Positions 2,601 to 37,661 of a DNA stretch of 64,000 nt are shown in pieces. Below the pieces are notes generated by a model, which ran no database searches, was not told the origin of the DNA, and saw only the letters and a program-made list of their open reading frames with translations. The first letter of the stretch is position 1; the number at the start of each line of letters is the position of its first letter. Both the position numbers and the translations under genes were made by a program. The stretch lies in assembly GCF_045037415.1 (NCBI RefSeq), contig NZ_CP173438.1. One strand, written 5' to 3'. This stretch comes from Escherichia coli (GTDB lineage Bacteria; Pseudomonadota; Gammaproteobacteria; Enterobacterales; Enterobacteriaceae).

Positions 2601-4025
2601 TTACTGCATTAACAGGTAGATAGTGCTGTCGCCGCGCTGAATGTTCAGTGCCAGCACAGACGGTTTGCTGTCGAGAACTTTACGCAGTTCAGCGATGTTT
2701 TTCACTGCCTGCTGGTTCGCGCCAATAATCACATCACCTTTCTTCAGGCCGATCTGCGCAGCCGGAGTCCCCGTTTTCACGTTGTTCACCACCACGCCCT
2801 GATCTTTGCCTTTGTTACTCATCTCAGCGCCTTCAATGCCGTTGAAGATGGTGCTGGAATCAACCTGATTCTGGCTGCTCTGCTGAAGTTCCAGGTTCAC
2901 GTTAACCTGCTTCCCGTCGCGCAGTAAGCCCAGGGTCAGTTTGCTACCTACCGGCATAGTGCCCACCTGAGCACGCAGTGCGGCAAAGCTGCTGATTGGC
3001 TTACCGTTCAGTGAGGTGATCACATCACCCGCTTTAATGCCCGCTTTCGCGGCGGAAGAATTCGGCAGAACCTGGCTTACGAAAGCACCGCGCTGAGCGT
3101 CAACTTTCATCGCTTTCGCCAGATCGGAGTTCAGCTCAGTGCCCATAATACCCAACTCACCACGTTTCACCTGGCCGTATTCCACCATCTGCGAGGTCAG
3201 GTTTTTCACCATGTTGCTCGGGATAGCAAAACCGATACCGATGTTTCCGCCGTCCGGTGCGAGGATCGCGGTGTTGATACCAATCAGTTCGCCGTTCAGG
3301 TTAACCAACGCACCACCTGAGTTACCCCGGTTGATCGCTGCATCGGTCTGGATGAAGTTTTCGTAGTTTTCAGCGTTCAGGCCGCTACGTCCCAGCGCAG
3401 AGACAATCCCGGAAGTTACTGTCTCGCCCAGGCCGAACGGGTTACCAATTGCTACGGTGTAATCACCCACGCGCAGCGCATCAGAATCCGCCATCTTAAT
3501 TGCGGTCAGGTTTTTCGGGTTCTGGATCTGGATCAACGCGATATCAGAGCGCGGATCTTTGCCAACCATCTTCGCGTCGAACTTACGACCATCGCTAAGC
3601 TGGACTTTAATCACCGTCGCGTTATCAACAACGTGGTTGTTGGTGACGACATAGCCTTTATCGGCATCAATGATGACGCCGGAACCCAGCGCCATGAATT
3701 TCTGTTGCTGGCCGCCGCCATTACCGCCCGGGCCCCCCTGGCAGAACGGAGAGCTCTGGAACGGAGAACCCTCCTGGCAGAACGGAGAATCATCACCGAA
3801 GAACTGCTGGAAATTACGCGGCATACGCGGCGTATTAACGGTTGTGCTACCTTCTACGTTAATGCTGACCACTGAAGGCATCACCTTTTCGAGCATCGGT
3901 GCAAGGCTTGGCATCTGCTGGGCTGTCGTTGCTGAAGAAGTCTCAGCCGCCGTTGCAGAGAGCGGAGATAACGCCAAACCTAAACTCAGAGCCAGTGCAC
4001 TCAGTGCTAATGTGGTTTTTTTCAT
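2601..4025 (-). CDS. degP: periplasmic serine endoprotease DegP/HtrA (trypsin domain + 2 PDZ)
   Basis: 474-aa translation with signal peptide, GNSGGAL serine protease motif, PDZ regions. Confidence 0.95.
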   Translation of the reverse strand: MKKTTLALSALALSLGLALSPLSATAAETSSATTAQQMPSLAPMLEKVMPSVVSINVEGSTTVNTPRMPRNFQQFFGDDSPFCQEGSPFQSSPFCQGGPGGNGGGQQQKFMALGSGVIIDADKGYVVTNNHVVDNATVIKVQLSDGRKFDAKMVGKDPRSDIALIQIQNPKNLTAIKMADSDALRVGDYTVAIGNPFGLGETVTSGIVSALGRSGLNAENYENFIQTDAAINRGNSGGALVNLNGELIGINTAILAPDGGNIGIGFAIPSNMVKNLTSQMVEYGQVKRGELGIMGTELNSDLAKAMKVDAQRGAFVSQVLPNSSAAKAGIKAGDVITSLNGKPISSFAALRAQVGTMPVGSKLTLGLLRDGKQVNVNLELQQSSQNQVDSSTIFNGIEGAEMSNKGKDQGVVVNNVKTGTPAAQIGLKKGDVIIGANQQAVKNIAELRKVLDSKPSVLALNIQRGDSTIYLLMQ

Positions 4026-4069
4026 GTATTTCAGTCTCGATTAACAGATAACGCAAAATTGCTGTGTTC

Positions 4070-15059: not shown

Positions 15060-17309
15060 TTAGAAACGGAAGGTTGCGGTTGCAACGACCTGACGTTCTG
15101 CGCCCCAGAAGCAACCATAAGTGTTAAAGCAGCTGGCGACGTATTCACGATCGAACAGGTTGTTGACATGCAGCGCCACGTTGGAGCCCGCCATGCCGAC
15201 TCGCGCCAGATCATAACGCACTAACGCATCCACGACCGTATAACTTCCCACTTTAAAGGAGTTAGCCGGATCACCATAGCTGGAGCCAGTATAACGACCA
15301 CCGGTGCCCAGCGTCAGACCTGAAAGCGGACCGTCAAAGAAGGTATAGTCAGCCCACAGCGAAGCCATGTGTTTTGGCACCTGTGCAGGCGTATTTCCTT
15401 TGTAGTTGGTGTCAGTGGTGTATTCCGCGTCAGTATAGGTGTAAGAACCAACCAAGTTAACACTCGCCGACAGTGCCGCTTTCGCTTCCAGCTCTACGCC
15501 ACGCGCACGAATCTCACCGCCTTCAACCGAGAACAGTGAACCGTTCGGATCCGCCATCAGGTTATTAGTTTTGGTAAGCTGATACAGTGCGCCAGTCACC
15601 ACAATTGGGCGATCTTCTGGCACATATTTCACGCCGACTTCATACTGTTTGCCTTTCGAAGGTGCAAACAGATCGCCGTTCGCATCAGTCTGTGAAGCGG
15701 GTTCAAATGATTCACTGTAGCTGAAGTAAGGCGTTACGCCGTTGTCGAACAGGTAGTTTACACCACCACGCCAGGTGAACTCTTTGTCGTCACGTTCAGA
15801 TTTATTACCGTAATCACGGTTGAAAGATGACTGATCGGCCCAGTCATAGCGACCGCCAAGCGTAACCAGCACTTTATCCCACTGCGCCTGATCCTGAACA
15901 TACAGGCCGGTTTGTTTCTGTTTCAGCAGAACGCGGTATGGACCAGACGGATTCGGGTGAGCGCCAAAATCAAAGTCACTACGGTCTAAATTATAGATAT
16001 CAGATGGTGCAACTGAACCGGCATAACCAAACCAGGAATCGATGTCATTACGCATACGCATAAAGTCAACGCCAGTCAGCAGAGTGTGATCCACTGAACC
16101 GGTTGCGAATTTGCTTTGCAACTGAGTATCAACAGAGAAGTTTTCTAACTTCTCATTATCGATAACGTACTGACGAGTCAGTGTATGGCCCCATTGAGAC
16201 TGCGGCACGTTAGCACATGGACTCGAAGAGGGGTTTGAAGAATAGAGCGGGTCTGAGCACATGCCGTAGCCATATACGCTCTTTTGCGAGACTTTATTTT
16301 GTGCAAAGCGCAGGTTCTGACGCACAGTAAAGGTGTCGTTAAATTCGTGGTCGAAGCTATAACCAATCATCTTCTCGTTACGAGAATAGGTGTTGTTCTT
16401 CGCGCCTTCGTTAAAGTCGGTCGGCAGACGCTTACCGTTTGGCAGCGGTTCGACAGTCCCCTCTTTCGGCAACCAGCCGTAATAACCGGTTTCCGGCTCG
16501 TTCTGGAAGTAAGAAAGGAAAGTGAAATTGGTTTTATCATTCGGACGCCAGGTAAACGCTGGAGCAATAGCATAACGCTGCTCTTCAGCCCCCTTCTGCT
16601 GGGCATTCGCAGAACGCGCAAGGCCGGTCAGGCGATAAGAGTAAACGCCGTCATCATCCAGCGCATCGCTGAAGTCAAAACCAGTCTGGAATAGGCTGTC
16701 AGTCCCGGCCTTAAACTGAACTTCTTTCAACGGTTCAGTGGTCGGGCGCTTGCTGACCATGTTCAACAGGCCGCCTGGGCTGCTTTTCCCATACAGCACG
16801 GAAACCGGGCCACGCATGATTTCAGCGCGCTCCAGCATATATGGGTCAATAACCGCATCGTTATAGAAGTTGCCCTGCATCTTCAGGCCATTCAGATAGT
16901 TGTTCTGGCTTTGGCCGTCTGCCGCAAATCCGCGGATGATCAGGTAATCATAAGTATTAGATGCGCCACGGGTTCCCACAGCAACGCCAGGGGTATAGCT
17001 AAGCGCTTCTTTCACCGACTTAGGCTGATGCAGTGCCATCTCTTCAGCGGTGACGACAGAAATAGATTGAGGTACTTTTTGAATCGGCGTATCAGTTTTA
17101 GTGCCGGTAGCGGACTGTCGCGCCGCAATAGTTGCAGCTGGCCCCCATGCGCTTTCTTGCGGCGCAGGTGCAGCGGTAACGGTGATAGTGTCTTCTTTCG
17201 GTTCAACCGCTGCCTGTGCATAAACAGACATGCCGCTAACCGCTGTGGCTACTACAACTGCGATTTTACGCAGTGAGTGTTTTGGCTGAGCAGTTTTGGA
17301 ACGCGCCAT
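15060..17309 (-). CDS. fhuA: TonB-dependent ferrichrome outer membrane receptor FhuA (phage T1/T5/phi80 and colicin M receptor)
   Basis: 749-aa translation with signal peptide, TonB box (DTITVTA), terminal ...ATATFRF beta-barrel motif. Confidence 0.95.
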   Translation of the reverse strand: MARSKTAQPKHSLRKIAVVVATAVSGMSVYAQAAVEPKEDTITVTAAPAPQESAWGPAATIAARQSATGTKTDTPIQKVPQSISVVTAEEMALHQPKSVKEALSYTPGVAVGTRGASNTYDYLIIRGFAADGQSQNNYLNGLKMQGNFYNDAVIDPYMLERAEIMRGPVSVLYGKSSPGGLLNMVSKRPTTEPLKEVQFKAGTDSLFQTGFDFSDALDDDGVYSYRLTGLARSANAQQKGAEEQRYAIAPAFTWRPNDKTNFTFLSYFQNEPETGYYGWLPKEGTVEPLPNGKRLPTDFNEGAKNNTYSRNEKMIGYSFDHEFNDTFTVRQNLRFAQNKVSQKSVYGYGMCSDPLYSSNPSSSPCANVPQSQWGHTLTRQYVIDNEKLENFSVDTQLQSKFATGSVDHTLLTGVDFMRMRNDIDSWFGYAGSVAPSDIYNLDRSDFDFGAHPNPSGPYRVLLKQKQTGLYVQDQAQWDKVLVTLGGRYDWADQSSFNRDYGNKSERDDKEFTWRGGVNYLFDNGVTPYFSYSESFEPASQTDANGDLFAPSKGKQYEVGVKYVPEDRPIVVTGALYQLTKTNNLMADPNGSLFSVEGGEIRARGVELEAKAALSASVNLVGSYTYTDAEYTTDTNYKGNTPAQVPKHMASLWADYTFFDGPLSGLTLGTGGRYTGSSYGDPANSFKVGSYTVVDALVRYDLARVGMAGSNVALHVNNLFDREYVASCFNTYGCFWGAERQVVATATFRF

Positions 17310-17330
17310 TGGTATATCTCTGATGAAAGT

Positions 17331-17360
17331 GAATGATAACGTAAACGAGAATGATTATTA
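17331..17360 (-). promoter_or_regulatory. Fur box (iron box) in fhuA promoter/leader
   Basis: Plus strand gaatgataacgtaaacgagaatgattatta; reverse complement contains GATAATCATTCTC...GTTATCATTC, close to the Fur consensus GATAATGATAATCATTATC; lies 22-51 nt upstream of the fhuA ATG. Confidence 0.55.
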
Positions 17361-17528
17361 TAAAGATGCGATAATATTCGAAACGCTGGCGGGTTCGCAA
17401 GTGATATACGCTCTGTGCGTCCATGAAGGGGCGAGAATCAATCAGATGAATCAAAAATGTTAATCTTTGCACCGTAAACCATAAAAATTCCATTACCAAA
17501 AATTAACATTTATGGCAAAGGGAAAAGC

Positions 17529-18539
17529 TTATCGGTAATACACTTCGAAGGTGGCAACAGAATTAACCCGACCACTTTTGACGCTACCCATTTTGATGTA
17601 GCGTGCTTTTAACGGAATAGTAACATTTTGATTTAACGTCGTTTTTTGAACAGGTGTATAGTCTGTATCAAATACCATCACATTGTTATTACTATCGAGG
17701 ATCTGCAGACCAACTCCTTCCGCCATTCCTGAACCAGACTCAATATTAAGAATATTATTACCCGTTACTCCAGTAGAACCTGATGAAGTAAAGCGGTAAT
17801 CAACTTTTACATCCTGAGAACATTTTTCAATCTGAATTTTAAACCGATCATCGGAAACTACAGGTGACACATTGTTAACATCAAAATCATCTGTGCCAAT
17901 ATCATTGAGTGGAACGGTAATATTTTTTTCTATAAGGTCGCATGTGCCCGGTTGAATATTGACCGGAACAGAACTAAAACGAAGCTCTCCAATAACACGA
18001 TTGTCATACTTCCAGTCAGCAACCAGTTTGCTGGTATCAATGGTCCCATTACCGACAGGTCCTGTGACAATAAACTGAATAGCTGCATGTATTGTAATCG
18101 GATAACCATATCCTTTAATCACTGTTGACGAGCCTTTATGCCAGGGCGTCATTAAATATCCGGCGGTGAGTTGCGCACTGGTGTTATTCGCCCACGCCGC
18201 GCGAAAACCGATTCCTGGCACATTAGTCTGAAACACATTGTTAAGTGGGTTATCAGTACGCATATCACCGTTTGTCAATACGGTATATCCTTGCCAGATC
18301 TCACCATTTGCCGTACAGGAAACTGAAATTGACGGACTGTTCGCATTTACTGTCGCAATAATCGTTCCAGGAACGGCATCGCTATTAACAACCAACGCAG
18401 GCACGGAGAATTGTACTGTTGCCGGATTTCCTCCATTTCCAGAAATGTTACAACCGGCGAAAACCTCAGGAATGACGCCCCAGCTAAGAAATATTATGGT
18501 CAATAATGTTCGTATATAAGAGACGAATCCTGGCTTCAT
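17529..18539 (-). CDS. fimbrial adhesin-like protein (two-domain tip subunit), last gene of accessory chaperone-usher operon
   Basis: 336-aa translation with signal peptide and pilin-type C-terminus ...ATFEVYYR; longer than a structural pilin, consistent with lectin + pilin domains. Confidence 0.75.
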   Translation of the reverse strand: MKPGFVSYIRTLLTIIFLSWGVIPEVFAGCNISGNGGNPATVQFSVPALVVNSDAVPGTIIATVNANSPSISVSCTANGEIWQGYTVLTNGDMRTDNPLNNVFQTNVPGIGFRAAWANNTSAQLTAGYLMTPWHKGSSTVIKGYGYPITIHAAIQFIVTGPVGNGTIDTSKLVADWKYDNRVIGELRFSSVPVNIQPGTCDLIEKNITVPLNDIGTDDFDVNNVSPVVSDDRFKIQIEKCSQDVKVDYRFTSSGSTGVTGNNILNIESGSGMAEGVGLQILDSNNNVMVFDTDYTPVQKTTLNQNVTIPLKARYIKMGSVKSGRVNSVATFEVYYR

Positions 18540-18560
18540 TATTTTTTCCTGTCTTATTTG

Positions 18561-21038
18561 TTATCGGCAATCCATTGTGGCTTTATAGATACCCGTGGTG
18601 TATTTTTCTGGCACTGTGACAACTCCTGTACATTGCTGGTTAATCTCTTTTCCCCACTGTACCGTAAATGTCATTGATTCTTGCACACCAGTAATATAAA
18701 CCTCCCCATCTTCACCAACAATCGCTGTACTATTCCCTAATGTCAGCAATGCCCCAAAGGGTACGCGTTCTTTATTATGGACTAATGTCAACAAGGCTCG
18801 TATTCCGCTACGTGCATCAAAATCGACACCAACAACAGCCCCTTTCGAAGGAATAACATCTTGTGTGGCATCAGAAATATCAAGACTATCGTGCCCCTGT
18901 GTATTCACAGTAATAGCGTTATGTCGATAATTCGTCATATTGGGAACAATCGCGTTTCCCCAATAATCAGTATAAACGCCTTGCGCATTTTGTACTTTTA
19001 CATTGGCACCCTCATTAATATGCACGATCGCGAATGAATCCTGCACTGATTGCCCCAATGTTACTCCATGAGCATGAGCAACCACCGCACCTTGCGCACT
19101 GTAATTCCACTGACGACTATTTTTATCATAGCTATATCCCAGACCGAATTCCCCCACTGAGCTACGATAACGTCCATTCATGCTGGCATCATAACCCACA
19201 TTATTATCAGTATAACTTTGCTGTAAATTATAACTCAGGTTGTTATCTTGCAGAGCAGTACCGCCAATTCCCAATTGATGTGATGTATTACTTTTATCGG
19301 AACGGTTTACGTTATACATCGCCCATGAATCTGGCAGCCAGCGAGAGAGAGGAATATTGAGTGTTAATGAAAATTGCTGCTCACCAGCCATTCCTGGCGT
19401 TTTCGTTAGTGTGTAATTAACAGACCAATTAATGTTACTCCAGGTCGTACTGTATCCCATTCCTATACTGCGTTCGGCCCCATGCATTCCCCAATAATCC
19501 TGTTGATAACCGTTAAGGTAGACCGAGCCCCAACGACCAATATTTTGTGAAAGATTAATTTGTAAACGATTACGCCGATTATTTGTCTGTCGATAACTGT
19601 AAATACCCTTGTCATCAGGTGTATCACGTTGATCAAGTGCTTCCTGGAAAGTGTAAAATTGTGATGTAGAATAACGATAACTTGCCAGAGTTACTGTCGT
19701 ATCAGTGTCTGGAAAATCTTTCGCATACTGTGCACGCCATGACAGTCCTGTAGCATCATCACGCCCATCATCAAACTTCGTTTCTGCTGCGGTGATATCA
19801 ACAGATACCGACCCCAGACGGCCTAAATCAGCGCCAATCCCTGTCACACCAGAATGATAAATTGAGGCACCAAGTATGCCGCCATAAATCGTTATTCCAT
19901 AGGGCAAGCCATATATCGCGGTTGCAACACCAAAAACAGGTGTCTCAGCATGATTATCGTTGTCACGGTATTTTCCAGTTGCAAGACTATATTTTAATGC
20001 GCCTTCTCGCTGTAGAATTGGAACCGTTGAACTGGCCTGAATAAAACTGTGTTCTTGCCCGTTGGTTTCTTTGATGGTGACTTCCAGATCGGCCCCCGCC
20101 GTTACCTGGCTTAAGTCTTTAATTTCAAATGGCCCTGCCGATACCCACGTTTGGTAAATAACATAGCCGTTTTGTTTAATCACAACTTGTGCATCGCTGT
20201 TGGCAATACCACGAACCACTGGCGCAAAGCCTTGTTCGCTGTCAGGCAGCATACTGGTGTCCGTTTCAAGCTTTATACCTGTCATCTGCACACTGTCAAA
20301 AAGATCGCCATTTGTGAACGTCTGCCCGACTTCCATCTGGCTTCTTAATGCTTTGATATCGCGTTGCAAACTGGTGCTGATCGACTCCCAACTGGAGTCA
20401 CTGTAAACGGTATTATTTCGTAGCCGCCATACGCCTAAATTAATCCCTGAATTTAAATTCAACCAATTTGAATTCAGGTTATCGCCATCACTGTTTTGCC
20501 GGGAACCACTGGCGTAATAACTTAACCAAACCGCACTCTCACCATCACTCCAGTATTTCGGTGAAATACTCCCTGCGGCCCGCGCATTCTGATAGATTTG
20601 CGGGATCCGCAGACACAGCGTTTGGCTGTCTAACTGGAAATCATAACGTGCGCCATCAATAATCTGAGCAATATCACCAAACTCAGTGTCATCATCCATT
20701 ACTTGTAACGCGGGAATGTCGTCAACTTTAAGACCGAACTCACGGAGATCCGCCTTTGTAAAACGAGGGATGAGCCTTTTTTTATCCGAAGACAGAATGA
20801 AGGTAATATTTCTCTTATCAAGATACTCTTGCCCCCACATAACAGAGGTAAGATATACTCCCGGAGTTAAGTTATTATTATTAACAAAATCCTCCAGCAC
20901 TTGTGTATTTTCAAGTGGGCTATCCAGCTCCAGGATACGAAGGTTAAATTCATCTCGTGCATAGCTCAATGAATACACTGCCGATAATGCAAATGTTATC
21001 CCAGTTAAGACAAATGTGCGATGCAATGGTAGCAGCAT
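18561..21038 (-). CDS. fimbrial outer membrane usher protein
   Basis: 825-aa translation with usher features (N-terminal signal, plug and barrel segments, C-terminal Cys pair). Confidence 0.85.
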   Translation of the reverse strand: MLLPLHRTFVLTGITFALSAVYSLSYARDEFNLRILELDSPLENTQVLEDFVNNNNLTPGVYLTSVMWGQEYLDKRNITFILSSDKKRLIPRFTKADLREFGLKVDDIPALQVMDDDTEFGDIAQIIDGARYDFQLDSQTLCLRIPQIYQNARAAGSISPKYWSDGESAVWLSYYASGSRQNSDGDNLNSNWLNLNSGINLGVWRLRNNTVYSDSSWESISTSLQRDIKALRSQMEVGQTFTNGDLFDSVQMTGIKLETDTSMLPDSEQGFAPVVRGIANSDAQVVIKQNGYVIYQTWVSAGPFEIKDLSQVTAGADLEVTIKETNGQEHSFIQASSTVPILQREGALKYSLATGKYRDNDNHAETPVFGVATAIYGLPYGITIYGGILGASIYHSGVTGIGADLGRLGSVSVDITAAETKFDDGRDDATGLSWRAQYAKDFPDTDTTVTLASYRYSTSQFYTFQEALDQRDTPDDKGIYSYRQTNNRRNRLQINLSQNIGRWGSVYLNGYQQDYWGMHGAERSIGMGYSTTWSNINWSVNYTLTKTPGMAGEQQFSLTLNIPLSRWLPDSWAMYNVNRSDKSNTSHQLGIGGTALQDNNLSYNLQQSYTDNNVGYDASMNGRYRSSVGEFGLGYSYDKNSRQWNYSAQGAVVAHAHGVTLGQSVQDSFAIVHINEGANVKVQNAQGVYTDYWGNAIVPNMTNYRHNAITVNTQGHDSLDISDATQDVIPSKGAVVGVDFDARSGIRALLTLVHNKERVPFGALLTLGNSTAIVGEDGEVYITGVQESMTFTVQWGKEINQQCTGVVTVPEKYTTGIYKATMDCR

Positions 21039-21104
21039 AAATTCCCTTGCGCCCGTAATATTATAAATACAGATCGGTTATTTATAGTAATACACTTCGG
21101 TGAT

Positions 21105-21821
21105 TTATAACTTTTGTTGTCGTTTCCCAGAACTTGAACCGTAGTCAGTTATCACCGACCATTCAACAATACTTCCCGCTCCGACAGGAAGACTAAACCG
21201 CTGCTCAGAAAATGGTCCTACCATCATCAATAATGCGCCAGGTTCAGATTTGCTCTCGGTGGGAACAATATTTTTTCCCGATACTGTCAGATCACTGAAT
21301 GAAATATAAAAAGGCGTTGGATTTTTTACTATGAGCTTCCCCGCTTCTTTATGGAACTTAAGTTTTTCCCATGCAGTGAGAGCATCACTATTATCCAAAG
21401 AAGCTGGCCGCCAAAATAATTTAAGCCGGGCTTTCATTGCAAATTGCAAGGTATTTCTATCTTTTAGTTCTTCTGGCATCGCAGAAACAGATTTTATGTT
21501 TGCCAGAAACAAACTTTCCCTATCCTGAGGAAGTTTGTTTTTATCACCTGTAAATACAATATGGAGTAATGTTTGCCGATTTTCTTCAAGTTTATAAACT
21601 GGAGGCGTAATGAGAAAGGGGGCTTTAGAGCCATCAATATTACTCACCCAGCTTTGCACCAAATAGCGTGCATATGCATCTTTATTTTTTAATGTGATTT
21701 GAACTTCATTTTGATTTGAAGGATAGATAATACGTGTACCGCCAAGAACAATACTTGCCTGAACTTGCAATGCCGTAAGAAGAAACGTAAAACCTAAACA
21801 AACTCGAGAAAAAACTGACAT
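21105..21821 (-). CDS. periplasmic fimbrial chaperone (PapD-like)
   Basis: ORF 21105..21854; start placed at ATG 21821 (MSVFSRVCLGF... signal peptide), preceded by ggaggg 8 nt upstream. Confidence 0.8.
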   Translation of the reverse strand: MSVFSRVCLGFTFLLTALQVQASIVLGGTRIIYPSNQNEVQITLKNKDAYARYLVQSWVSNIDGSKAPFLITPPVYKLEENRQTLLHIVFTGDKNKLPQDRESLFLANIKSVSAMPEELKDRNTLQFAMKARLKLFWRPASLDNSDALTAWEKLKFHKEAGKLIVKNPTPFYISFSDLTVSGKNIVPTESKSEPGALLMMVGPFSEQRFSLPVGAGSIVEWSVITDYGSSSGKRQQKL

Positions 21822-21866
21822 AAATAACCCTCCGTGGTCAAACAGTCCTTTCAAACACTATGAATA

Positions 21867-22433
21867 TTAGCGATAAAATACTTCGAACGTCGCAGATGAG
21901 GCATACTTACCCGCAGTCGGCGCGTTATTACCAACCTGAATAACATTGGCGGTGTAATTGAATATTGTTGGAGTAATGCTCCCGGCATTATCAACATCAG
22001 TGGATGCATCGGGAACTGAACCATCAAATTTCACATCGTTAGCACCGCCATTTTTATTTGTCACCGTAATACCCACATTTGTTGCACTGCCAGCCCCAGC
22101 TTCGCTATTTTCCAGACGCAGGAAACCTGCATCCGTTGTCGTTCCAGAAAATGTCAGGTTTAGTTTGTCCACCAACGGATCGCATTTTATTAATTCAATT
22201 TTAAAATCTTTTGACGTTCCAATACTACCGTCTCCAGAATAGTCCGCTGGGTAAGTATCTGCAAAAGTGACTGTCCCTGTTGTACTGGCAGACTCGTTTA
22301 CATTAATTTCGCAAGTATCGGCAACAATTTTACCGTTAAAGTTAACCACTCCGGTATCTGTAGCAAATACACTGGTACTTACTACAGCGATGAGACTTCC
22401 TGACACTAACAGAGAAAGCAATTTTTTATTCAT
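21867..22433 (-). CDS. major fimbrial subunit (type 1 pilin-like), first gene of accessory operon
   Basis: 188-aa translation, signal peptide, Cys pair, C-terminal ...SSATFEVFYR donor-strand motif. Confidence 0.85.
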   Translation of the reverse strand: MNKKLLSLLVSGSLIAVVSTSVFATDTGVVNFNGKIVADTCEINVNESASTTGTVTFADTYPADYSGDGSIGTSKDFKIELIKCDPLVDKLNLTFSGTTTDAGFLRLENSEAGAGSATNVGITVTNKNGGANDVKFDGSVPDASTDVDNAGSITPTIFNYTANVIQVGNNAPTAGKYASSATFEVFYR

Positions 22434-22734
22434 AAAAATCCCTTAATTATGAGGTAATACACATGATTCCATTCCAGAGCGACTGGTCAGGGCTTGATAA
22501 ATATTGATATTAGAAATATATCCACCAAATAATATTATTTTTAGATTAGAACAAAAAACACATAGCCTGTCTATACAAACTGCAGTAATAAAACAATAAC
22601 CACATGAATTTTAAAGTGTTGTTTTTATTTTAAGAGTTTAAGGTAATAAAATATAACATAAACCCAAAATATATATTAATGGTCGTATATTCATTAAATA
22701 AATATTTATTTGGTTTATCTAAATGATTTCATTA

Positions 22735-22758
22735 CGCTCTCCGCATAAGCGGAGAGCG
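22735..22758 (-). terminator. mrcB terminator hairpin
   Basis: cgctctccgc ataa gcggagagcg perfect 10-bp inverted repeat 10 nt 3' of the mrcB stop, AT-rich tail on minus strand. Confidence 0.55.
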
Positions 22759-22767
22759 ATTACGATA

Positions 22768-25386: not shown

Positions 25387-27816
25387 TCACGAATACTTTT
25401 TCGTTCGTCGCGTCGGTGCGGTGTTTGCCGGGTCGTCCGGCCAGACATGTTTGGGATAACGCCCTTTCATCTCTTTTTGCACCTCACGGTACGCTCCTTT
25501 CCAGAAGGCGCTCAAATCACGCGTGATTTGCAGCGGCCTTTGGGCAGGGGAAAGCAACTCCAGCACCAACGGTACGCGCCCCTGGGCGATAGTCGGATTA
25601 GAGGCCTCACCAAACATCTCCTGCATTCTCACCGCCAGCGCGGGCGGGTTATCTTCATGGTAACGAATGGCGATCCGGCTTCCCGTCGGCACAGTGTAAT
25701 GCGCAGGCAATTCACTATCCAGACGTTGCTGCATTACCCAATCAAGTAATCCACGCAGTGCCTGATAAATATCGAGTGATTTCAGGCCGCGTAGCGAATG
25801 TACGCCTGTCATATGCGGCAGTAGCCACGTTTCCAGCGTCGCCAACAAACTTTCATCATCAACCGCTGGCCAGTCATATTCCGGCAACCACTTTGCGGCA
25901 CATAACAAACGCAAGCGTAGCTGTTCCGCTTCCGCCGTCCAGTTGAGCACGCTTAAACCTTTATCACGAATGCCGTTAAGCATCGCCTGATGCAACTCGT
26001 CTTCCGAGGGTTTCGCCAGCGGTTGCACTTTTACCGTCAACTGACCGATTTGCAGCCGACGCCAGGCTTTCAGCGTACCTTGCGCGTCATCCCACTCCAC
26101 GGTGTCAGACTGCTGTACCAGCTGCGGGCAGCGTTGTACTAACTCATCAATATCGACCGGCAGCGCCAGTAAAATCCGCGCATCCGGCGAAGAACTGCCC
26201 TGCAATAATAACGGCGCGATCAACCATTCGTGGCGGCTAAGCGCATCGTCGGCATCGAGCATCGCCCCCATGCCGTTCGCCAGTTGATAGCGTCCCTCTT
26301 GCCCACGGCGGCGAGCAATACGATCGGCATACGCTCCGGCAAGTCGCGGCGCGATAAGCGAACTGTCTGCCTCACCGCCGCGTACGTTTAAACGTTTTAA
26401 CAGTTGCTGACTACGTTGCTGCCAGGCGGGTTGATTGCGCAAAAACGCCACGCCCAGGTCACTATTGCCCATCCGTGGCGGCTCTTCGAGAATGGCGGCA
26501 ATTTTTGCCGCGGTAGCAGCTTCGTCGTCGTTCTTCGCGCTAACCAGCATTGCCGCTAAACGCGGATCGTTACCCAGCGCTGCCATTTTTTGCCCTTGCG
26601 CACTAAGCCGTTCACCGTCCAGCGCCCCCAGCATCCGTAACAGGCGTTTCGCGGCCAGTAGATTCACCGTTGGCGGTTGATCCAGCCAGCTCATCTGCGC
26701 CGGATCGCTGCATCCCCATTGCAGTAATTCCATCAGCAAACAGGAAAGATCGCTTTGTAATATTTCCGGTTCACTTTGCGCGGCAGCGCGTTCTGCTTGT
26801 TCTTTGGCGATTAAATGCAGGCAGATACCCGGCTCCAGACGCCCGGCACGCCCGGCACGTTGCGTCATCGACGCCTGACTAACACGTTGAGTAACCAGCC
26901 GCGTAAGCCCTGTACGCGGATCAAAACGCGCCACACGCTCCTGGGCACAATCCACCACCAGACGAATACCTTCGATGGTTAAACTGGTTTCAGCAATATT
27001 GGTCGCCAGCACCACTTTACGCATCCCTTGCGGTGCCGGGAGGATCGCTTTTCGCTGATCGTTCAGCGACAACGCGCCATACAGCGGGCAGAGCAACACA
27101 TCACTGCCGATGCGTGAAGTCAGTTGTTCCTGCACACGCTGAATTTCTCCGACGCCAGGTAAAAATAACAGTAATGATCCACTTTCCTGACGCAGCATTT
27201 CGGCGGTGGCAACCGCGACGGCTTCGTCAAAACGCTGATGAGCGGGCAGCGGCAAATAACGGCGTTCAACTGGAAACGAGCGCCCTTCTGAGATGACGAC
27301 GGGCGCTTCTGGCAGCATTTGCTGCAAGCGGTCGTTGTCCAGCGTAGCCGACATAATCAGCAGTTTAAGGTCATCACGCAGACCTTGTTGCACATCGAGT
27401 AACAGCGCCAACGCCAAATCCGCCTGCAAGCTGCGCTCATGAAATTCATCAAGGATCACCAATCCAACACCGCTCAGTTCCGGGTCACGCTGGATCATCC
27501 GCGTCAGCACGCCTTCGGTAACCACTTCCAGGCGGGTATTCGGCCCGACGCAGTTTTGCGCACGCATCCGGTAGCCAACGGTATCGCCTGGCTTTTCGTT
27601 AAGCAGCTCCGCCAGTCGTTGCGCAACGTTACGCGCCGCCAGACGACGCGGCTCCAGCAGGATAATTTTCCCGTTAATGCCGGGATGCGCCAGCAGTTGC
27701 AGCGGCAGCCAGGTTGATTTCCCGGCCCCGGTCGGCGCACTTAATAACACCTGCGATGCACCATCGAGGGCAGCAAGTAACTCAGGTAAGACGGCAGCAA
27801 CGGGCAACGACGACAC
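25387..27816 (-). CDS. hrpB: ATP-dependent RNA helicase HrpB (DEAH box)
   Basis: ORF 25387..27861; GAGKST Walker A and DEFH motif; start taken from the protein length I recall (about 809 aa), which puts it at a GTG 15 codons into the ORF. Confidence 0.8.
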   Translation of the reverse strand: MSSLPVAAVLPELLAALDGASQVLLSAPTGAGKSTWLPLQLLAHPGINGKIILLEPRRLAARNVAQRLAELLNEKPGDTVGYRMRAQNCVGPNTRLEVVTEGVLTRMIQRDPELSGVGLVILDEFHERSLQADLALALLLDVQQGLRDDLKLLIMSATLDNDRLQQMLPEAPVVISEGRSFPVERRYLPLPAHQRFDEAVAVATAEMLRQESGSLLLFLPGVGEIQRVQEQLTSRIGSDVLLCPLYGALSLNDQRKAILPAPQGMRKVVLATNIAETSLTIEGIRLVVDCAQERVARFDPRTGLTRLVTQRVSQASMTQRAGRAGRLEPGICLHLIAKEQAERAAAQSEPEILQSDLSCLLMELLQWGCSDPAQMSWLDQPPTVNLLAAKRLLRMLGALDGERLSAQGQKMAALGNDPRLAAMLVSAKNDDEAATAAKIAAILEEPPRMGNSDLGVAFLRNQPAWQQRSQQLLKRLNVRGGEADSSLIAPRLAGAYADRIARRRGQEGRYQLANGMGAMLDADDALSRHEWLIAPLLLQGSSSPDARILLALPVDIDELVQRCPQLVQQSDTVEWDDAQGTLKAWRRLQIGQLTVKVQPLAKPSEDELHQAMLNGIRDKGLSVLNWTAEAEQLRLRLLCAAKWLPEYDWPAVDDESLLATLETWLLPHMTGVHSLRGLKSLDIYQALRGLLDWVMQQRLDSELPAHYTVPTGSRIAIRYHEDNPPALAVRMQEMFGEASNPTIAQGRVPLVLELLSPAQRPLQITRDLSAFWKGAYREVQKEMKGRYPKHVWPDDPANTAPTRRTKKYS

Positions 27817-30794: not shown

Positions 30795-32192
30795 ATTTTT
30801 ACCCGAGTCGCTAATTTTTGCCGCAAGGTGCTAAGCCGCGAGGAAAGCGAGGCTGAACAGGCAGTCGCCCGTCCACAGGTGACGGTGATCCCGCGTGAGC
30901 AGCATGCTATTTCCCGCAAAGATATCAGTGAAAATGCCCTGAAGGTAATGTACAGGCTCAATAAAGCGGGATACGAAGCCTGGCTGGTTGGCGGCGGCGT
31001 GCGCGACCTGTTACTTGGCAAAAAGCCGAAAGATTTTGACGTAACCACTAACGCCACGCCTGAACAGGTACGTAAACTGTTCCGTAACTGCCGTCTGGTG
31101 GGTCGCCGTTTCCGTCTGGCTCATGTGATGTTTGGCCCGGAGATTATCGAAGTTGCGACCTTCCGTGGACATCACGAAGGTAACGTCAGCGACCGCACGA
31201 CCTCCCAACGCGGGCAAAACGGTATGTTGCTGCGCGACAACATTTTCGGCTCCATCGAAGAAGACGCCCAGCGCCGCGATTTCACTATCAACAGCCTGTA
31301 TTACAGCGTGGCAGATTTTACCGTCCGTGATTACGTTGGCGGCATGAAGGATCTGAAAGACGGCGTTATCCGTCTGATTGGTAACCCGGAAACGCGCTAC
31401 CGTGAAGATCCGGTACGTATGCTCCGCGCGGTTCGTTTTGCCGCCAAATTGGGCATGCGCATCAGCCCGGAAACCGCCGAGCCGATCCCACGCCTGGCAA
31501 CCTTACTGAACGATATCCCACCGGCACGTCTGTTTGAAGAATCGCTGAAACTGTTGCAAGCGGGCTACGGTTACGAAACCTATAAGCTGCTGTGTGAATA
31601 TCATCTGTTCCAGCCGCTGTTCCCGACCATTACCCGCTACTTCACGGAAAATGGCGACAGCCCGATGGAACGCATTATTGAGCAGGTACTGAAGAATACC
31701 GATACGCGTATCCATAACGATATGCGCGTGAACCCGGCGTTCCTGTTTGCCGCCATGTTCTGGTACCCATTGCTGGAGACGGCACAGAAAATTGCTCAGG
31801 AGAGCGGCCTGACCTATCACGACGCTTTCGCACTGGCGATGAACGACGTGCTGGACGAAGCCTGCCGTTCACTGGCGATCCCGAAACGTCTGACTACGCT
31901 AACTCGCGATATCTGGCAGTTGCAGTTGCGTATGTCCCGTCGTCAGGGTAAACGCGCATGGAAACTGCTGGAGCATCCTAAGTTCCGTGCGGCATACGAC
32001 CTGTTGGCCTTACGAGCCGAAGTTGAGCGTAACGCTGAACTGCAACGTCTGGTGAAATGGTGGGGTGAGTTCCAGGTTTCCGCGCCGCCAGACCAAAAAG
32101 GGATGCTTAACGAACTGGATGAAGAACCGTCACCGCGTCGTCGTACTCGTCGTCCACGCAAACGCGCACCGCGTCGTGAGGGTACTACATGA
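30795..32192 (+). CDS. pcnB: poly(A) polymerase I
   Basis: ORF 30774..32192; established PcnB N-terminus (M)[12 protein letters not shown] corresponds to an ATT codon at 30795-30797 (known non-canonical AUU start); basic C-terminal tail. Confidence 0.85.
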
Positions 32193-32668
32193 CAGTGGCG
32201 TATATTGCCATAGGCAGCAATCTGGCCTCTCCGCTGGAGCAGGTCAATGCTGCCCTGAAAGCATTAGGCGATATTCCAGAAAGCCGCATTCTTGCCGTTT
32301 CTTCGTTTTACCGCACCCCACCTCTGGGGCCGCAAGATCAACCCGATTACTTAAATGCCGCCGTCGCGCTGAAAACCACTCTTGCCCCTGAAGAGCTACT
32401 CAATCACACACAGCGTATCGAATTGCAGCAAGGTCGCGTCCGTAAAGCTGAACGCTGGGGACCGCGCACGCTGGATCTCGACATCATGCTGTTTGGTAAT
32501 GAAGTAATAAATACCGAACGTCTGACCGTTCCGCACTACGATATGAAAAATCGTGGCTTTATGCTGTGGCCACTGTTTGAAATTGCGCCGGAGCTGGTCT
32601 TTCCTGATGGAACGATATTAGAAAACTTATTAAGAAAAAATAAATTTCATGAATTAAATAAATGGTAA
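32189..32668 (+). CDS. folK: 2-amino-4-hydroxy-6-hydroxymethyldihydropteridine pyrophosphokinase
   Basis: 159-aa translation ([15 protein letters not shown]...). Confidence 0.95.
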
Positions 32669-33015
32669 TGTAACAGTAACGTGAATATAAATAAATTCCG
32701 AAAAATAACCTCACCCTATTGAAATTAATACACCCTCTCAGTTACAATCATAATTAATATTATTTTTTCGCCCCCCCACCCCATCTCACATACAATACTT
32801 TTCCCGCTGTGTATATTAACTTTTGCTTAAAAATGAATTAAGTGGATATTTAAATTTAAATGTGTACATTATTCTACTTAGTGATGAACAGATGTTAAAT
32901 TCAGTAAATCTTCACATTCATCATTAACAAACTAATCTCTTTTCCTCTATCGGGAATCCCTGCCTGAAAGGGCCCAATTGTAGTTAAACTCATGGAATAT
33001 GATTCAAGGATTTTT

Positions 33016-33600
33016 ATGTCTAAAAAATTAGGTTTTGCGCTCTCTGGTCTTATGCTGGCAATGGTTGCAGGTAGTGCTTCTGCAGATATGGACGGTGGTC
33101 AGTTAAATATCAGTGGTCTGGTTGTTGATAATACCTGTGAAACCCGCGTAGACGGCGGTAATAAAGATGGCCTGATCCTGCTGCAAACTGCAACCGTTGG
33201 AGAAATCTCTGAGGGTGTGCTGGACACTACCGTTGGTGCTAAGGCTAAACCATTCAGCATTACTGTTGACTGTAGTAAAGCTAATCCGGCACCAGGCAGC
33301 ACAGCAAAAATGACTTTTGGTTCAGTCTTCTTTGGTAACAGTAAAGGAACCCTGAATAATGACATGTCAATTAATACTCCATCTGACGGTGTTAATATTG
33401 CTCTGCACAATATTGAAGGTTCTACTATTAAGCAGGTTAAAATCAACAATCCTGGCGATATCTATTCCAAAGCACTGGATGCAACTTCCAAATCCGCAAC
33501 TTATGATTTTAAAGCGTCTTATGTTCGTGCAGATGCAAGTCTGGCAGCCACAGCAGGTTATGTAAAAACTAACACTGCATATACCGTTACTTATCAGTAA
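33016..33600 (+). CDS. yadN: fimbrial major subunit-like protein YadN
   Basis: ORF 32992..33600; start moved to [23 protein letters not shown] signal peptide; pilin C-terminus ...TYQ. Confidence 0.85.
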
Positions 33601-33696
33601 TCACTTCCATTCATATTCATAAATTGAATACATACAGGGAATAATATTGATACTCCATACTATTTCCTGTTTTTTTAACTCTACCAGGAATGGTTT

Positions 33697-34437
33697 ATGT
33701 TTTTCAACACTAAATATACAGCAGCATTATGCTTCGCAACCTGTGTAGCTTTTAGCTCGTCAGCTATAGCAGATATCGTAATTTCCGGTACACGCGTAAT
33801 CTATAAAAGCGACCAAAAAAGTGTCAACATTCGCCTGGAAAATAAAGGCAATAACCCATTACTTGTTCAGAGTTGGCTGGATACTGGTGATGACAATGCT
33901 GAGCCTGGCAGTATTACCGTCCCCTTTACTGCGACTCCGCCCGTATCACGCATTGATGCAAAACGCGGCCAAACCATCAAACTGATGTACACCGCCAGCA
34001 GCGTCCTGCCAAAAGACAGAGAAAGTGTGTTCTGGTTTAACGTACTAGAAGTTCCTCCAAAACCAGATGCCGCAACAGTTGCAAATCAAAGCCTGCTGCA
34101 ATTGGCATTTCGCACACGTATAAAACTGTTCTATCGCCCGGAAGCATTGAAGGGGAATCCCTCAGAAGCACCATTAGCCCTGAAATGGTCCTGGTCAGGT
34201 TCCGAGGGTAAAGCAGCATTACGAGTGGCCAATCCAACCCCTTACTACGTCTCTTTTAGCAGTGGTGATTTAGAAGCCAGCGGTAAACGCTTTCCGATTG
34301 ATGTGAAAATGATTGCACCATTCAGTGATGAAGTCATGAAAGTCACTGGCCTTAATGGCAAAGCAAATTCTGCAAAAGTGCATTTTTACGCCATTAATGA
34401 TTTTGGTGGTGCCATTGAAGGTAATGCCAGTCTGTAA
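33697..34437 (+). CDS. yadV: fimbrial periplasmic chaperone (EcpD/YadV)
   Basis: 246-aa translation, PapD-like chaperone. Confidence 0.85.
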   Translation: MFFNTKYTAALCFATCVAFSSSAIADIVISGTRVIYKSDQKSVNIRLENKGNNPLLVQSWLDTGDDNAEPGSITVPFTATPPVSRIDAKRGQTIKLMYTASSVLPKDRESVFWFNVLEVPPKPDAATVANQSLLQLAFRTRIKLFYRPEALKGNPSEAPLALKWSWSGSEGKAALRVANPTPYYVSFSSGDLEASGKRFPIDVKMIAPFSDEVMKVTGLNGKANSAKVHFYAINDFGGAIEGNASL

Positions 34438-34471
34438 TCAGGCAAGGATATAATTCCGCAGGAAGCATAAC

Positions 34472-37072
34472 GTGACTATAAAACCAACTAAAAATTATCA
34501 CAATCATCTGACCCGTATCGCCACGTTTTGCGCGCTGCTGTATTGCAATGGTGCTTTCTGTGCTGAACTTGTTGAATATGACCATACCTTCCTGATGGGG
34601 CAGAATGCCTCAAATATTGATCTCAGCCGGTATAGTGAAGGTAACCCCGCTATACCGGGTGTGTACGACGTTAGTGTTTATGTCAACGATCAACCTGTTA
34701 TTAACCAAAGCATTACATTTGTCGCAATTGAAGGAAAAAAGAACGCACAAGCCTGTATCACACTTAAAAATTTATTGCAGTTCCATATTAATTCTCCCGA
34801 TATAAACAGCGAAAAAGCCGTTCTGCTTGCCCGGGATGAAGCTCTCGGCAATTGCCTCAATTTGACGGAAATTATCCCTCAGGCTTCCGTTCGTTATGAC
34901 GTTAACGATCAACGTCTGGATATAGACGTTCCTCAGGCCTGGGTAATGAAAAATTACCAAAACTATGTTGATCCATCGTTATGGGAAAATGGCATTAATG
35001 CAGCCATGTTGTCATACAACCTCAACGGATATCATAGTGAAACCCCTGGTCGAAAAAATGACAGCATTTATGCTGCTTTTAACGGTGGGATGAATTTGGG
35101 TGCATGGCGGCTGCGTGCCTCAGGCAACTACAACTGGATGACCGATTCTGGCGGTAATTATGATTTTAAGAATCGGTATATACAGCGTGATATCGCCTCA
35201 CTACGCTCTCAATTCATTATTGGTGAGTCTTATACGACGGGCGAAACCTTTGATTCCGTCAGTATCCGAGGCATTCGCTTATACAGTGACAGCCGCATGT
35301 TGCCTCCGACATTAGCCAGCTTTGCGCCTATCATTCATGGCGTTGCCAATACCAACGCCAAAGTCACTATTACGCAAGGTGGCTATAAGATTTATGAAAC
35401 GACGGTGCCGCCAGGCGCTTTCGTCATTGATGATCTGAGTCCATCAGGGTACGGCAGTGATCTTATTGTTACCATCGAAGAATCCGATGGCTCAAAGCGG
35501 ACATTCTCGCAACCTTTTTCATCGGTCGTTCAAATGTTACGCCCTGGCGTTGGACGTTGGGATATTAGCGGCGGCCAGGTCTTAAAAGATGATATTCAGG
35601 ATGAGCCTAATTTATTTCAGGCCAGCTACTACTACGGTCTGAATAACTATCTGACGGGTTATACCGGTATTCAGATTACCGATAATAACTATACCGCTGG
35701 TTTGTTAGGTCTTGGTCTGAATACTTCGGTCGGTGCATTTTCTTTCGATGTGACTCACTCCAATGTTCGTATACCGGATGATAAAACATACCAGGGGCAA
35801 AGTTATCGTGTTTCCTGGAACAAGTTATTCGAAGAAACAAGTACTTCACTGAATATCGCGGCCTATCGCTATTCGACACAGAATTATCTTGGTCTTAATG
35901 ATGCACTAACTCTGATTGATGAAGTGAAACATCCAGAACAAGATCTTGAACCGAAATCCATGCGTAATTACTCGCGCATGAAAAATCAGGTTACAGTCAG
36001 TATTAACCAACCGTTGAAATTTGAAAAAAAAGATTACGGTTCTTTTTATCTTTCTGGTAGTTGGTCCGATTACTGGGCTTCCGGACAAAATCGTAGCAAT
36101 TACTCCATTGGCTACAGTAACAGTGCATCCTGGGGCAGCTACAGCATCAGTGCACAGCGTTCATGGAATGAGGACGGCGACGCTGATGATAGCGTTTATC
36201 TCAGTTTCACCATTCCTATTGAAAAATTACTTGGCACTGAACAACGTACTTCAGGTTTCCAGAGTATCGATACTCAAATGAGCAGTGACTTTAAGGGTAA
36301 TAACCAACTCAACGTCAGTAGCAGTGGCTATAGCGATAACGCTCGCGTCAGTTATAGCGTGAATACTGGCTATACGATGAATAAAGCCAGCAAAGATTTG
36401 AGTTATGTTGGGGGTTATGCCAGCTATGAATCACCGTGGGGAACTCTGGCAGGTTCAGTTTCTGCAAACAGCGATAACAGTCGTCAAGTTTCTCTCAGCA
36501 CCGACGGTGGTTTTGTATTGCATAGTGGCGGCCTGACCTTCAGTAATGACAGTTTTAGCGACTCCGATACACTGGCGGTAGTTCAGGCTCCAGGTGCTCA
36601 AGGAGCGCGAATAAATTATGGCAACAGTACTATCGATCGATGGGGTTATGGTGTCACCAGCGCTCTTTCTCCTTATCATGAAAACCGTATCGCGCTGGAT
36701 ATCAACGATCTTGAGAACGATGTTGAATTAAAAAGTACCAGTGCTGTAGCTGTGCCTCGTCAGGGTTCTGTCGTTTTTGCTGATTTTGAAACCGTGCAAG
36801 GGCAATCAGCCATTATGAACATCACACGTAGTGATGGCAAAAATATTCCATTTGCTGCAGATATTTATGATGACCAAGGCAATGTCATTGGTAATGTTGG
36901 ACAGGGTGGACAGGCTTTTGTTCGTGGTATTGAACAGCAAGGAAATATCAACATTAAATGGCTCGAAGAAAGTAAACCTGTAAGTTGTCTTGCGCATTAT
37001 CAACAAAGTTCAGAAGCAGAAAAAATAGCGCAATCTATTATTCTGAATGGAATTCGGTGTCAGATTCAGTAA
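34472..37072 (+). CDS. htrE: fimbrial outer membrane usher HtrE
   Basis: 866-aa translation; GTG start read at 34472. Confidence 0.9.
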   Translation: MTIKPTKNYHNHLTRIATFCALLYCNGAFCAELVEYDHTFLMGQNASNIDLSRYSEGNPAIPGVYDVSVYVNDQPVINQSITFVAIEGKKNAQACITLKNLLQFHINSPDINSEKAVLLARDEALGNCLNLTEIIPQASVRYDVNDQRLDIDVPQAWVMKNYQNYVDPSLWENGINAAMLSYNLNGYHSETPGRKNDSIYAAFNGGMNLGAWRLRASGNYNWMTDSGGNYDFKNRYIQRDIASLRSQFIIGESYTTGETFDSVSIRGIRLYSDSRMLPPTLASFAPIIHGVANTNAKVTITQGGYKIYETTVPPGAFVIDDLSPSGYGSDLIVTIEESDGSKRTFSQPFSSVVQMLRPGVGRWDISGGQVLKDDIQDEPNLFQASYYYGLNNYLTGYTGIQITDNNYTAGLLGLGLNTSVGAFSFDVTHSNVRIPDDKTYQGQSYRVSWNKLFEETSTSLNIAAYRYSTQNYLGLNDALTLIDEVKHPEQDLEPKSMRNYSRMKNQVTVSINQPLKFEKKDYGSFYLSGSWSDYWASGQNRSNYSIGYSNSASWGSYSISAQRSWNEDGDADDSVYLSFTIPIEKLLGTEQRTSGFQSIDTQMSSDFKGNNQLNVSSSGYSDNARVSYSVNTGYTMNKASKDLSYVGGYASYESPWGTLAGSVSANSDNSRQVSLSTDGGFVLHSGGLTFSNDSFSDSDTLAVVQAPGAQGARINYGNSTIDRWGYGVTSALSPYHENRIALDINDLENDVELKSTSAVAVPRQGSVVFADFETVQGQSAIMNITRSDGKNIPFAADIYDDQGNVIGNVGQGGQAFVRGIEQQGNINIKWLEESKPVSCLAHYQQSSEAEKIAQSIILNGIRCQIQ

Positions 37073-37091
37073 CTACAAGGGACGTCAAATG

Positions 37092-37661
37092 ATAAAAACA
37101 ACGCCACATAAAATAGCGATACTGATGGGAGTATTATTATCACCCTCAGTATTTGCAACGGATATTAATGTTGAGTTTACAGCCACTGTCAAAGCGACAA
37201 CCTGTAACATCACACTTACTGGTAATAATGTCACGAATGATGGCAATAATAACTACACTTTGAGAATCCCTAAGATGGGCCTGGATAAGATCACGAATAA
37301 AACGACAGAATCTCAGGCTGATTTTAAACTGGTTGCCAGTGGGTGCAGCAGTGGCATTAGCTGGATTGATACCACTCTGACCGGAAACGCATTATCAAGC
37401 TCATCCAAGCTTATTATACCGCTGTCTGGTGATTTATCTTCGACGACAAGTAATATCGGTATGGGTTTCAAAAAACGGACTACTGATGATGCCACTTTCC
37501 TTCAACCTAACAACAGTGCGGACAAGATACGCTGGAGCACAGAAGAAATGCAGCCCGATAAAGGTCTTGAAATGACTGTCGCGCTACGTGAAACCGCAGC
37601 AGGGCAAGGCGTGCCGGGGATTTTTCGCGCCCTGGCGACGTTTAATTTCATCTATCAATAA
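37092..37661 (+). CDS. yadM: fimbrial-like protein YadM
   Basis: ORF 37047..37661; start moved to MIKTTPHKIAILMGVLLS signal peptide (189 aa). Confidence 0.8.
   Translation: MKTTPHKIAILMGVLLSPSVFATDINVEFTATVKATTCNITLTGNNVTNDGNNNYTLRIPKMGLDKITNKTTESQADFKLVASGCSSGISWIDTTLTGNALSSSSKLIIPLSGDLSSTTSNIGMGFKKRTTDDATFLQPNNSADKIRWSTEEMQPDKGLEMTVALRETAAGQGVPGIFRALATFNFIYQ

Follow-up and report, generated by a model that had tools for sequence, protein, structure and literature searches.

Results

A four-gene chaperone-usher operon between mrcB and fhuA

The window analysed here is a stretch of 64,000 nucleotides of Escherichia coli DNA (contig NZ_CP173438.1, RefSeq assembly GCF_045037415.1), and our subject is the four-gene fimbrial operon within it that has been published under the name ushABCD. 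All coordinates are positions in the window, and all features of the ush locus are given on the minus strand. On that strand, hrpB and mrcB are followed by four further open reading frames (ORFs) and then by fhuA, fhuC, fhuD and fhuB. The whole variable segment (17470..22767, minus strand) measures 5,298 bp; in blastn comparisons its place is taken by 57 bp in the E. coli strain Nissle and by 59 bp in K-12. An earlier note, made from the sequence alone, had described a complete minus-strand operon between fhuA and mrcB. Its four ORFs are present at the coordinates given below, and the Pfam domains to be expected of such an operon were all found.

The first gene, ushA (21867..22433), encodes a major pilin of 188 aa with a signal peptide, Cys41/Cys84 and a C-terminal ATFEVFYR. 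Its product matches the Pfam Fimbrial domain (E 7e-19), and its matches to LpfA/FimA-type pilins in NCBIfam are all sub-threshold. Next comes ushB (21105..21821), which encodes a periplasmic chaperone of 238 aa. The whole ORF spans 21105-21854, with the start at the ATG at 21821, which has a GGAGG ribosome-binding site ahead of it and is also the start in the RefSeq annotation. UshB matches PapD_N (E 1e-33) and PapD_C (E 1e-14) and is 34% identical to K-12 YraI; it carries the motifs GGTRIIY and RLKLFWRP, in which GGTR...RLKLFWRP presumably supplies Arg8 and Lys112 of PapD/FimC, the subunit-anchoring pair. The third gene, ushC (18561..21038), encodes an outer-membrane usher of 825 aa with the Pfam domains PapC_N (residues 30-177), Usher (193-740; E 8.5e-180) and PapC_C (749-810). 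UshC is 40% identical to K-12 YraJ; among NCBIfam profiles it scores highest with LpfC, where its 679.5 bits fall short of the cut-off of 1271. The last gene, ushD (17529..18539), encodes a two-domain tip adhesin of 336 aa, in which an MrkD-like receptor-binding domain at about residues 29-198 (Cys30-Cys75) is followed by a Fimbrial, or pilin, domain at about residues 200-336 (Cys200-Cys240) that ends in ATFEVYYR. The pilin-domain cysteine columns are invariant across 46 homologs.

Every ush gene is preceded by a ribosome-binding site, and the intergenic gaps are tight (21-66 bp). UshA and UshD have in common signal peptides, disulfide pairs in their pilin domains and a conserved C-terminal strand. 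The classical marks of a chaperone-usher system, namely a three-domain usher, a two-domain PapD-like chaperone and Fimbrial-domain subunits, are all recognizable, and as judged from its genes ush is a full set of chaperone-usher assembly components. Going by the established pathway and by what is known of the family, the Sec system would export UshA and UshD, UshB would cap the subunits by donor-strand complementation, and UshC would polymerize a UshA fibre with UshD at its tip. The operon has no genes for adaptor subunits, and UshD would thus attach straight to the UshA rod.

Junctions and upstream region

The mrcB-fhuA spacer of K-12 MG1655 measures 219 bp and holds no operon, in agreement with the gap of about 0.2 kb that the earlier note had given for that strain; the Nissle spacer is likewise 219 bp. 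Alignment to K-12, which the note had proposed for defining the boundaries, shows that homology ends at window position 22764, four bases past the mrcB stop codon, and restarts at 17464. Against Nissle 1917, a strain of phylogroup B2, the breakpoints are 22768 and 17469. The 57-59 bp unique to these empty sites contain the native mrcB terminator hairpin, which is absent from the window. A different, G+C-rich hairpin, CGCUCUCCGC-UUAU-GCGGAGAGCG (22735..22758), occupies its place directly 3' of the mrcB stop; it folds at -22.9 kcal/mol (z score -6.3), and none of 200 shuffled sequences did as well. We infer from its sequence that it would act as a terminator. The mrcB terminator expected at this border is thus matched by a strong hairpin 3' of the stop codon, but not by the native hairpin of K-12 and Nissle.

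At the other end, the conserved fhuA promoter region (17310..17469), the boundary outside the operon, has been kept intact: the approximately 160 bp 5' of fhuA align in K-12, Nissle and all ush-positive genera (described below) up to a common ATTAACCC motif. Across this right-hand junction, 3' of the ushD stop, lies an AT-rich inverted repeat (I7; 17452..17514) with 18-nt arms that are 89% complementary.

The spacer between mrcB and ushA (22434-22767) is 334 bp long with a G+C (GC) content of 27.2%, which bears out the extremely AT-rich stretch of about 330 bp noticed earlier 5' of the pilin gene. Its AT-rich portion (22434..22734) is the presumed promoter region and the presumed target of H-NS, the latter by analogy with yad, a second fimbrial operon in the window (33016-40206). 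No GATC sites occur in the upstream region and no recombinase gene lies nearby; the lack of GATC sites makes a Pap-like Dam/Lrp phase switch unlikely. The AT-rich inverted repeats I3 and I4 were considered as a phase-variation switch and judged to be chance occurrences in DNA of 27% GC. The operon encodes no regulator of its own. Mutation of hns de-represses the yad promoter more than 100-fold in strain CFT073, and de-repression is also seen in EC958 (PMC13245861). As this promoter is equally AT-rich and is repressed by H-NS, silencing of ush by H-NS is plausible by analogy; transcription would start within the 27%-GC upstream region, and H-NS would keep it low, as for the neighbouring yad.

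A catalogued operon in about 10% of complete E. coli genomes

Wurpel et al. 2013 listed ECSF_0165 among 38 E. coli chaperone-usher types and called it 'sporadic' (PMC3559732), and Stubenrauch et al. 2017 named the genes ushA (subunit), ushB (chaperone), ushC (usher) and ushD (subunit), with UshC and YraJ placed in one 'Gamma*' usher subfamily (PMC5717340). The latter paper reports the operon in sequence type 131 (ST131) and in the lineage of the enteropathogenic strain E2348/69, and its experiment on TAM (translocation and assembly module)-dependent folding of the usher is the sole one published on ush. Among the uropathogenic strains compared by Ren et al. 2016, ECSF_0165 was found only in the EC958/NA114 (ST131) group.

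Strain SE15 (NC_013654.1, 180813-185717), the source of the ECSF_ tags in the name of the type, carries the same four genes in the same order between mrcB and fhuA. A three-way alignment with SE15 and SK1144 shows two differences across the operon, a single substitution and a 6-bp indel, the latter being a deletion private to the window in the upstream region. A short hexamer tandem tract there (22608..22626; GTTTTT on the plus strand, with TTGTTT as the indel) is polymorphic in length by 6 bp: the window has a single copy, SK1144 and SE15 two each. Strains 23366 and 23779, which match at 100% identity, are probably also single-copy at this tract.

SE15 and SK1144 have one RefSeq usher protein in common. 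The SE15 usher is now tagged ECSF_RS00850 in RefSeq, where the old tag is not displayed; we tentatively equate it with ECSF_0165, since the published four-gene description fits this locus and the one further usher in the 25 kb of SE15 examined is that of yad, an operon of seven genes. The window operon and ECSF_0165/ushABCD agree in genes, position, gene order and carriers (ST131 and the E2348/69 lineage), and the genes themselves do not differ. By these comparisons we take it to be the ECSF_0165-type operon, already catalogued and a known member of a well-understood kind.

An island-only query was searched against 5,426 complete E. coli genomes, and 574 of them gave a match. All matches are chromosomal and nearly all are single in their genome; at least 80% of the query is present in 570 genomes, and identity is at least 99% in 566. 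Judged by strain name, the carriers, some 10% of complete genomes, are largely ST131, and ush is missing from the other 90% or so, including K-12 and the B2 strain Nissle. Most E. coli are without the operon, and the lineages with the ST131-type allele hold an intact copy. In strain BLSE177-2012, 59% of the operon is left, and the adjoining gene is annotated as a TonB-dependent receptor domain protein.

Diverged alleles and probable recombination within E. coli

At least three deeply diverged alleles occupy the slot in E. coli, represented by the window (the ST131 type), E2348/69 and SCPM-O-B-8794; UshC of the last two is 95% and 93% identical, respectively, to that of the window. Of the three, the ST131 type is the sole complete allele: none of the four ORFs is disrupted in the window, and the annotation of SK1144 and SE15 likewise shows them intact. 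The E2348/69 island differs from that of the window at 2-16% of nucleotides, in a mosaic pattern, and the flanks differ by 0.4-1.4%. Synonymous divergence (dS) between ush alleles is 0.16-0.45, or 4-10 times the value for mrcB (0.042). The ratio of non-synonymous to synonymous divergence (dN/dS) between them is 0.09-0.19, which argues for long-term purifying selection. Within ushD, comparison of the window with E2348/69 gives a dS of 0.054 and a dN/dS of 0.41 for the receptor-binding half, and 0.353 and 0.07 for the pilin half; this difference in dS points to recombination inside the gene.

Divergence from Nissle is 0.8% up to the mrcB junction and about 6% over 16000-17469, adjoining the island, against a background of 0.2-1.3%. 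The 6% tract, roughly 1.5 kb long, takes in the fhuA promoter and the 5' half of the gene and looks like a recombination tract that ends inside fhuA. The gene itself (15060-17309) is hypervariable, with 86% nucleotide and 89.5% protein identity to K-12 (97.6% for fhuC). The FhuA of the window is as near to a Citrobacter FhuA (90.9%) as to that of K-12, and is 63% identical to the protein of E2348/69 and 73% identical to that of SCPM-O-B-8794. Its allele is found at 99% identity or more in exactly 566 genomes, equal to the count for the ush island. Co-transfer of a large segment together with the divergent fhuA was considered and rejected, as the divergence from K-12 does not extend beyond fhuA (fhuC 97.6%, mrcB 95.5%).

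The yad operon, its usher included, differs between the window and Nissle, both of phylogroup B2, at 17-32% of nucleotides; relative to K-12, the usher gene htrE is 95% identical and yadC 72%. At this second fixed fimbrial locus, too, the window shows a pattern of allele replacement. Divergence from Nissle is also raised in hrpB (26001-27000, 3.5%), in pcnB/folK (31001-33000, 2.6-6%) and in an rpnC-like region (42001-43000, 9%), and recombination tracts seem to form a mosaic over this entire neighbourhood.

The same slot in other genera

One genome per species was scanned with UshC peptides, and further contigs were reached through homologs of UshD. The UshC scan found a pilin-chaperone-usher-adhesin arrangement between mrcB and fhuA in two Citrobacter species and in an Enterobacter metagenome-assembled genome (MAG), and the UshD homologs led to the same arrangement on contigs of Salmonella enterica, Kluyvera ascorbata and Enterobacter soli. 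In all these loci the spacer between ushD and fhuA is 212-222 bp long, and the right-hand junction falls at one conserved motif. In Yersinia aldovae a more distant relative occurs, without mrcB and fhuA as its neighbours. In one S. enterica contig (L013, from GCA_008732795.1), two small ORFs lie between mrcB and the pilin gene (1711-2636), one of them with an IS4 N-terminal domain; a second contig, L014, is otherwise identical and lacks them. The six types that Wurpel et al. listed as common with Salmonella exclude ECSF_0165 (PMC3559732), and in the text of PMC3559732 and PMC5717340, as far as searched, we found no mention of the cross-genus mrcB-fhuA synteny or of independent shuffling of pilin and adhesin.

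Relationships among these loci do not follow those of the surrounding genome. The Enterobacter MAG and E. soli have MrcB proteins that are 95% identical and UshC proteins that are 57% identical, whereas for Citrobacter and Kluyvera the values are 90% for MrcB and 82-83% for UshC. Two Citrobacter, On2M and FP75, are 97.7% identical in MrcB, 83.5% in UshC and 44% in UshD. The Ush identities conflict with those of core proteins and do not fit simple vertical descent. Pilin and usher split into two deep lineages, and the grouping of the adhesin differs again.

The UshD adhesin and likeness to other fimbriae

The nearest folds to the modelled receptor-binding domain of UshD are Abp1D and MrkD, not FimH. 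Fold comparison gave figures of 15.0 for Abp1D and 13.3 for MrkD1P, followed by AtfE (10.7), LpfD (9.9), GafD (9.3), UclD (9.2) and CupB6 (8.0), with FimH at 4.5. The model of full-length UshD has the architecture of a two-domain tip adhesin and aligns with FimH, FocH and LpfD. When the PDB was searched with the UshD sequence, the pilin domain alone was matched (FimA and FimF), and this gave no clue to a ligand. Collagen is the ligand of MrkD, from the type 3 fimbriae of Klebsiella, whereas the Acinetobacter adhesins Abp1D and Abp2D recognize both fibrinogen and collagen. Since UshD has the MrkD/Abp1D fold, a matrix-protein ligand of the collagen or fibrinogen type is likelier than mannose; our suggestion that UshD may bind such a host matrix protein is made from the model and with low confidence.

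Several known fimbriae resemble ush in part. Mrk (type 3) fimbriae likewise have an MrkD-type receptor-binding domain; the rest of ush is not Mrk-like, and it has no fifth, mrkF-like gene. The Yra operon of K-12 (yraHIJK) has the same four-gene layout and the usher and chaperone identities given above, but YraK and UshD have no detectable similarity and the loci lie far apart on the K-12 map (yra at 3.29 Mb, the ush slot at 0.167 Mb). The top NCBIfam usher and chaperone profiles for ush are LpfC, FimD, LpfB and FimC. Assignment of ush to Lpf was rejected, as its scores fall under the NCBIfam equivalog cut-offs (151.8 of 360 for LpfB and 38.2 of 221 for LpfA, besides the LpfC value above). Yad, called Sta in Salmonella, is likewise an AT-rich operon in a fixed slot with an AT-rich spacer and strongly diverged alleles. 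It differs from ush in having seven genes, in its tip adhesin, YadC, and in its presence in nearly all E. coli.

Other features of the window

An Rfam scan of the window gave no match within or close to the ush operon; its sole match is a known element, the HtrA 5' untranslated region thermometer 5' of degP (4020-4065, minus strand; 77 bits against a gathering score of 52). The gene yaeI (K-12 b0164) is missing at about 574-699, and dapD and yaeH nearly adjoin, as they do in Nissle and E2348/69.

Discussion

The segment between mrcB and fhuA is, in our judgement, probably an intact ushABCD allele of the ST131 type at an old fimbrial locus that has been reshaped by loss and exchange, not a fresh insertion. 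On this interpretation the slot would be common across the Enterobacteriaceae, and whole operons, or modules such as pilin and adhesin, would be lost or exchanged by homologous recombination through the conserved flanks.

A rival reading, which builds on the earlier note's view of an inserted and horizontally acquired AT-rich block, is that a foreign, low-GC islet was recently inserted into an empty mrcB-fhuA spacer in an ancestor of ST131. Some 90% of complete E. coli genomes, K-12 and Nissle among them, have no ush operon and 566 carriers are 99% or more identical, both of which fit such an event, and PMC5717340 favours lateral transfer of ush between lineages. The composition that first suggested it is real. 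The ush genes have GC contents of 0.39-0.44, and of 0.29-0.37 at third codon positions (GC3), compared with 0.51-0.60 and 0.53-0.70 in the flanking genes, so that the block is indeed the more AT-rich. However, yad, which Wurpel et al. call core-associated and common to Salmonella (PMC3559732), has GC contents of 0.41-0.45, a GC3 of 0.32-0.43 (six genes, yadL left out) and an upstream spacer of 0.29 GC, close to the 0.27 of ush. Because a core-associated operon in the same window is equally AT-rich, composition does not tell old fimbrial loci from new ones in this case, and the low GC cannot count as evidence that ush was acquired. The slot is also filled in four other genera, and in E. coli it has at least three alleles whose age greatly exceeds the core divergence of their host strains. 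The word 'inserted' presumes a direction of change that goes beyond these data.

Nor was any vehicle found. The segment contains four fimbrial ORFs and no integrase, transposase or insertion sequence (IS) ORF, the 64-kb window contains no transfer RNA gene, and the repeat search and blastn comparison showed no direct or inverted repeats flanking the junctions and no target-site duplication. Plasmid and phage records yielded no true copy, and the other matches there were short usher fragments of 66-70% identity. One PLSDB record, CP054241.1, labelled a plasmid and 834 kb in length, contains the whole operon at 99.7% identity (159562-164849) and is probably a mislabelled chromosomal fragment. 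An integrative genomic island was rejected for want of an integrase, a tRNA or attachment site and flanking direct repeats, and the ush segment is, by its sequence content, no self-mobile island. Homologous recombination may have brought the operon in from a different Escherichia lineage, but that would amount to allele exchange at an existing locus. On balance a recent insertion into an empty spacer seems improbable.

A different reading is that ush is a cryptic, decaying remnant whose genes are intact in this strain merely because little time has passed, and which makes no fimbriae and has no role there. Wurpel et al. name 'remnants of ancient clusters' as one possibility (PMC3559732), and the lack of a dedicated regulator would fit. 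So would the state of other copies: ushB is frameshifted in E2348/69 (contig L019, 13926-14643) and in SCPM-O-B-8794 (L007, 788-1500), in line with the chaperone pseudogenes remarked on in PMC5717340, and these two copies are probably non-functional. Additionally, some ST131-type carriers have IS1, IS5 or IS903B within the operon, and one has a truncation. Set against this are the intact ORFs of the window, SK1144 and SE15, the low dN/dS between alleles, and ribosome-binding sites and hallmark motifs that have all been kept. Moreover, relief of H-NS repression renders many 'cryptic' fimbriae of K-12 functional (Korea et al. 2010, as cited in PMC13245861). We regard decay without function as unlikely.

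Several observations nevertheless weigh against an intact allele at an old, recombining locus. The ushB frameshifts and IS insertions suggest that the operon is dispensable and may be decaying, and a literature search turned up no studies of how Ush fimbriae are expressed or assembled or of what they bind. Sigma-70-like sites in the upstream region are no more frequent than in shuffled sequence, so that no promoter is claimed, and the I7 repeat after ushD, with a fold of -17 kcal/mol and a z score of -1.4 that is not significant, is a weak candidate for a terminator. UshD is 17% identical to Abp1D and MrkD, a level at which a ligand is not reliably inferable and the binding site is not transferable. 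Comparison of E. coli with the other genera gives identities of 56-65% for chaperone and usher and of 84-94% for MrcB, FhuC and FhuB; taken overall, Ush proteins agree at about 60% from genus to genus and flanking proteins at 87-94%. Finally, ancestral presence followed by loss is not separable from repeated capture at a favoured site on the basis of the seven ush-positive loci outside the window.

The old-locus reading could be taken further. The slot might be an ancient cassette site beside the hypervariable phage receptor gene fhuA, at which pilin, adhesin and usher-chaperone backbone are swapped between genera independently of one another, and ST131 might be the one major E. coli lineage to have retained an intact operon. 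UshD might then bind a host matrix protein, fibrinogen or collagen for instance, and aid the success of the clone, for example on catheters or in damaged tissue. We offer this extended scenario as speculation and think it rather doubtful.

What our analysis adds to the catalogued operon is the synteny across genera, the modular mosaic formed by pilin, usher and adhesin, the use of yad as a control for GC content and the MrkD/Abp1D-class fold of the adhesin. The synteny bears on the question raised by Wurpel et al., ancient remnant or recent acquisition, and our data favour an old locus. The comparison with yad cautions that low GC should not be taken as evidence of recent transfer for fimbrial operons. 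The ush operon is one of few adhesin loci that separate the pandemic, multidrug-resistant ST131 from most other E. coli, and the receptor-binding domain of MrkD/Abp1D class predicted for UshD would give binding assays a concrete place to start.

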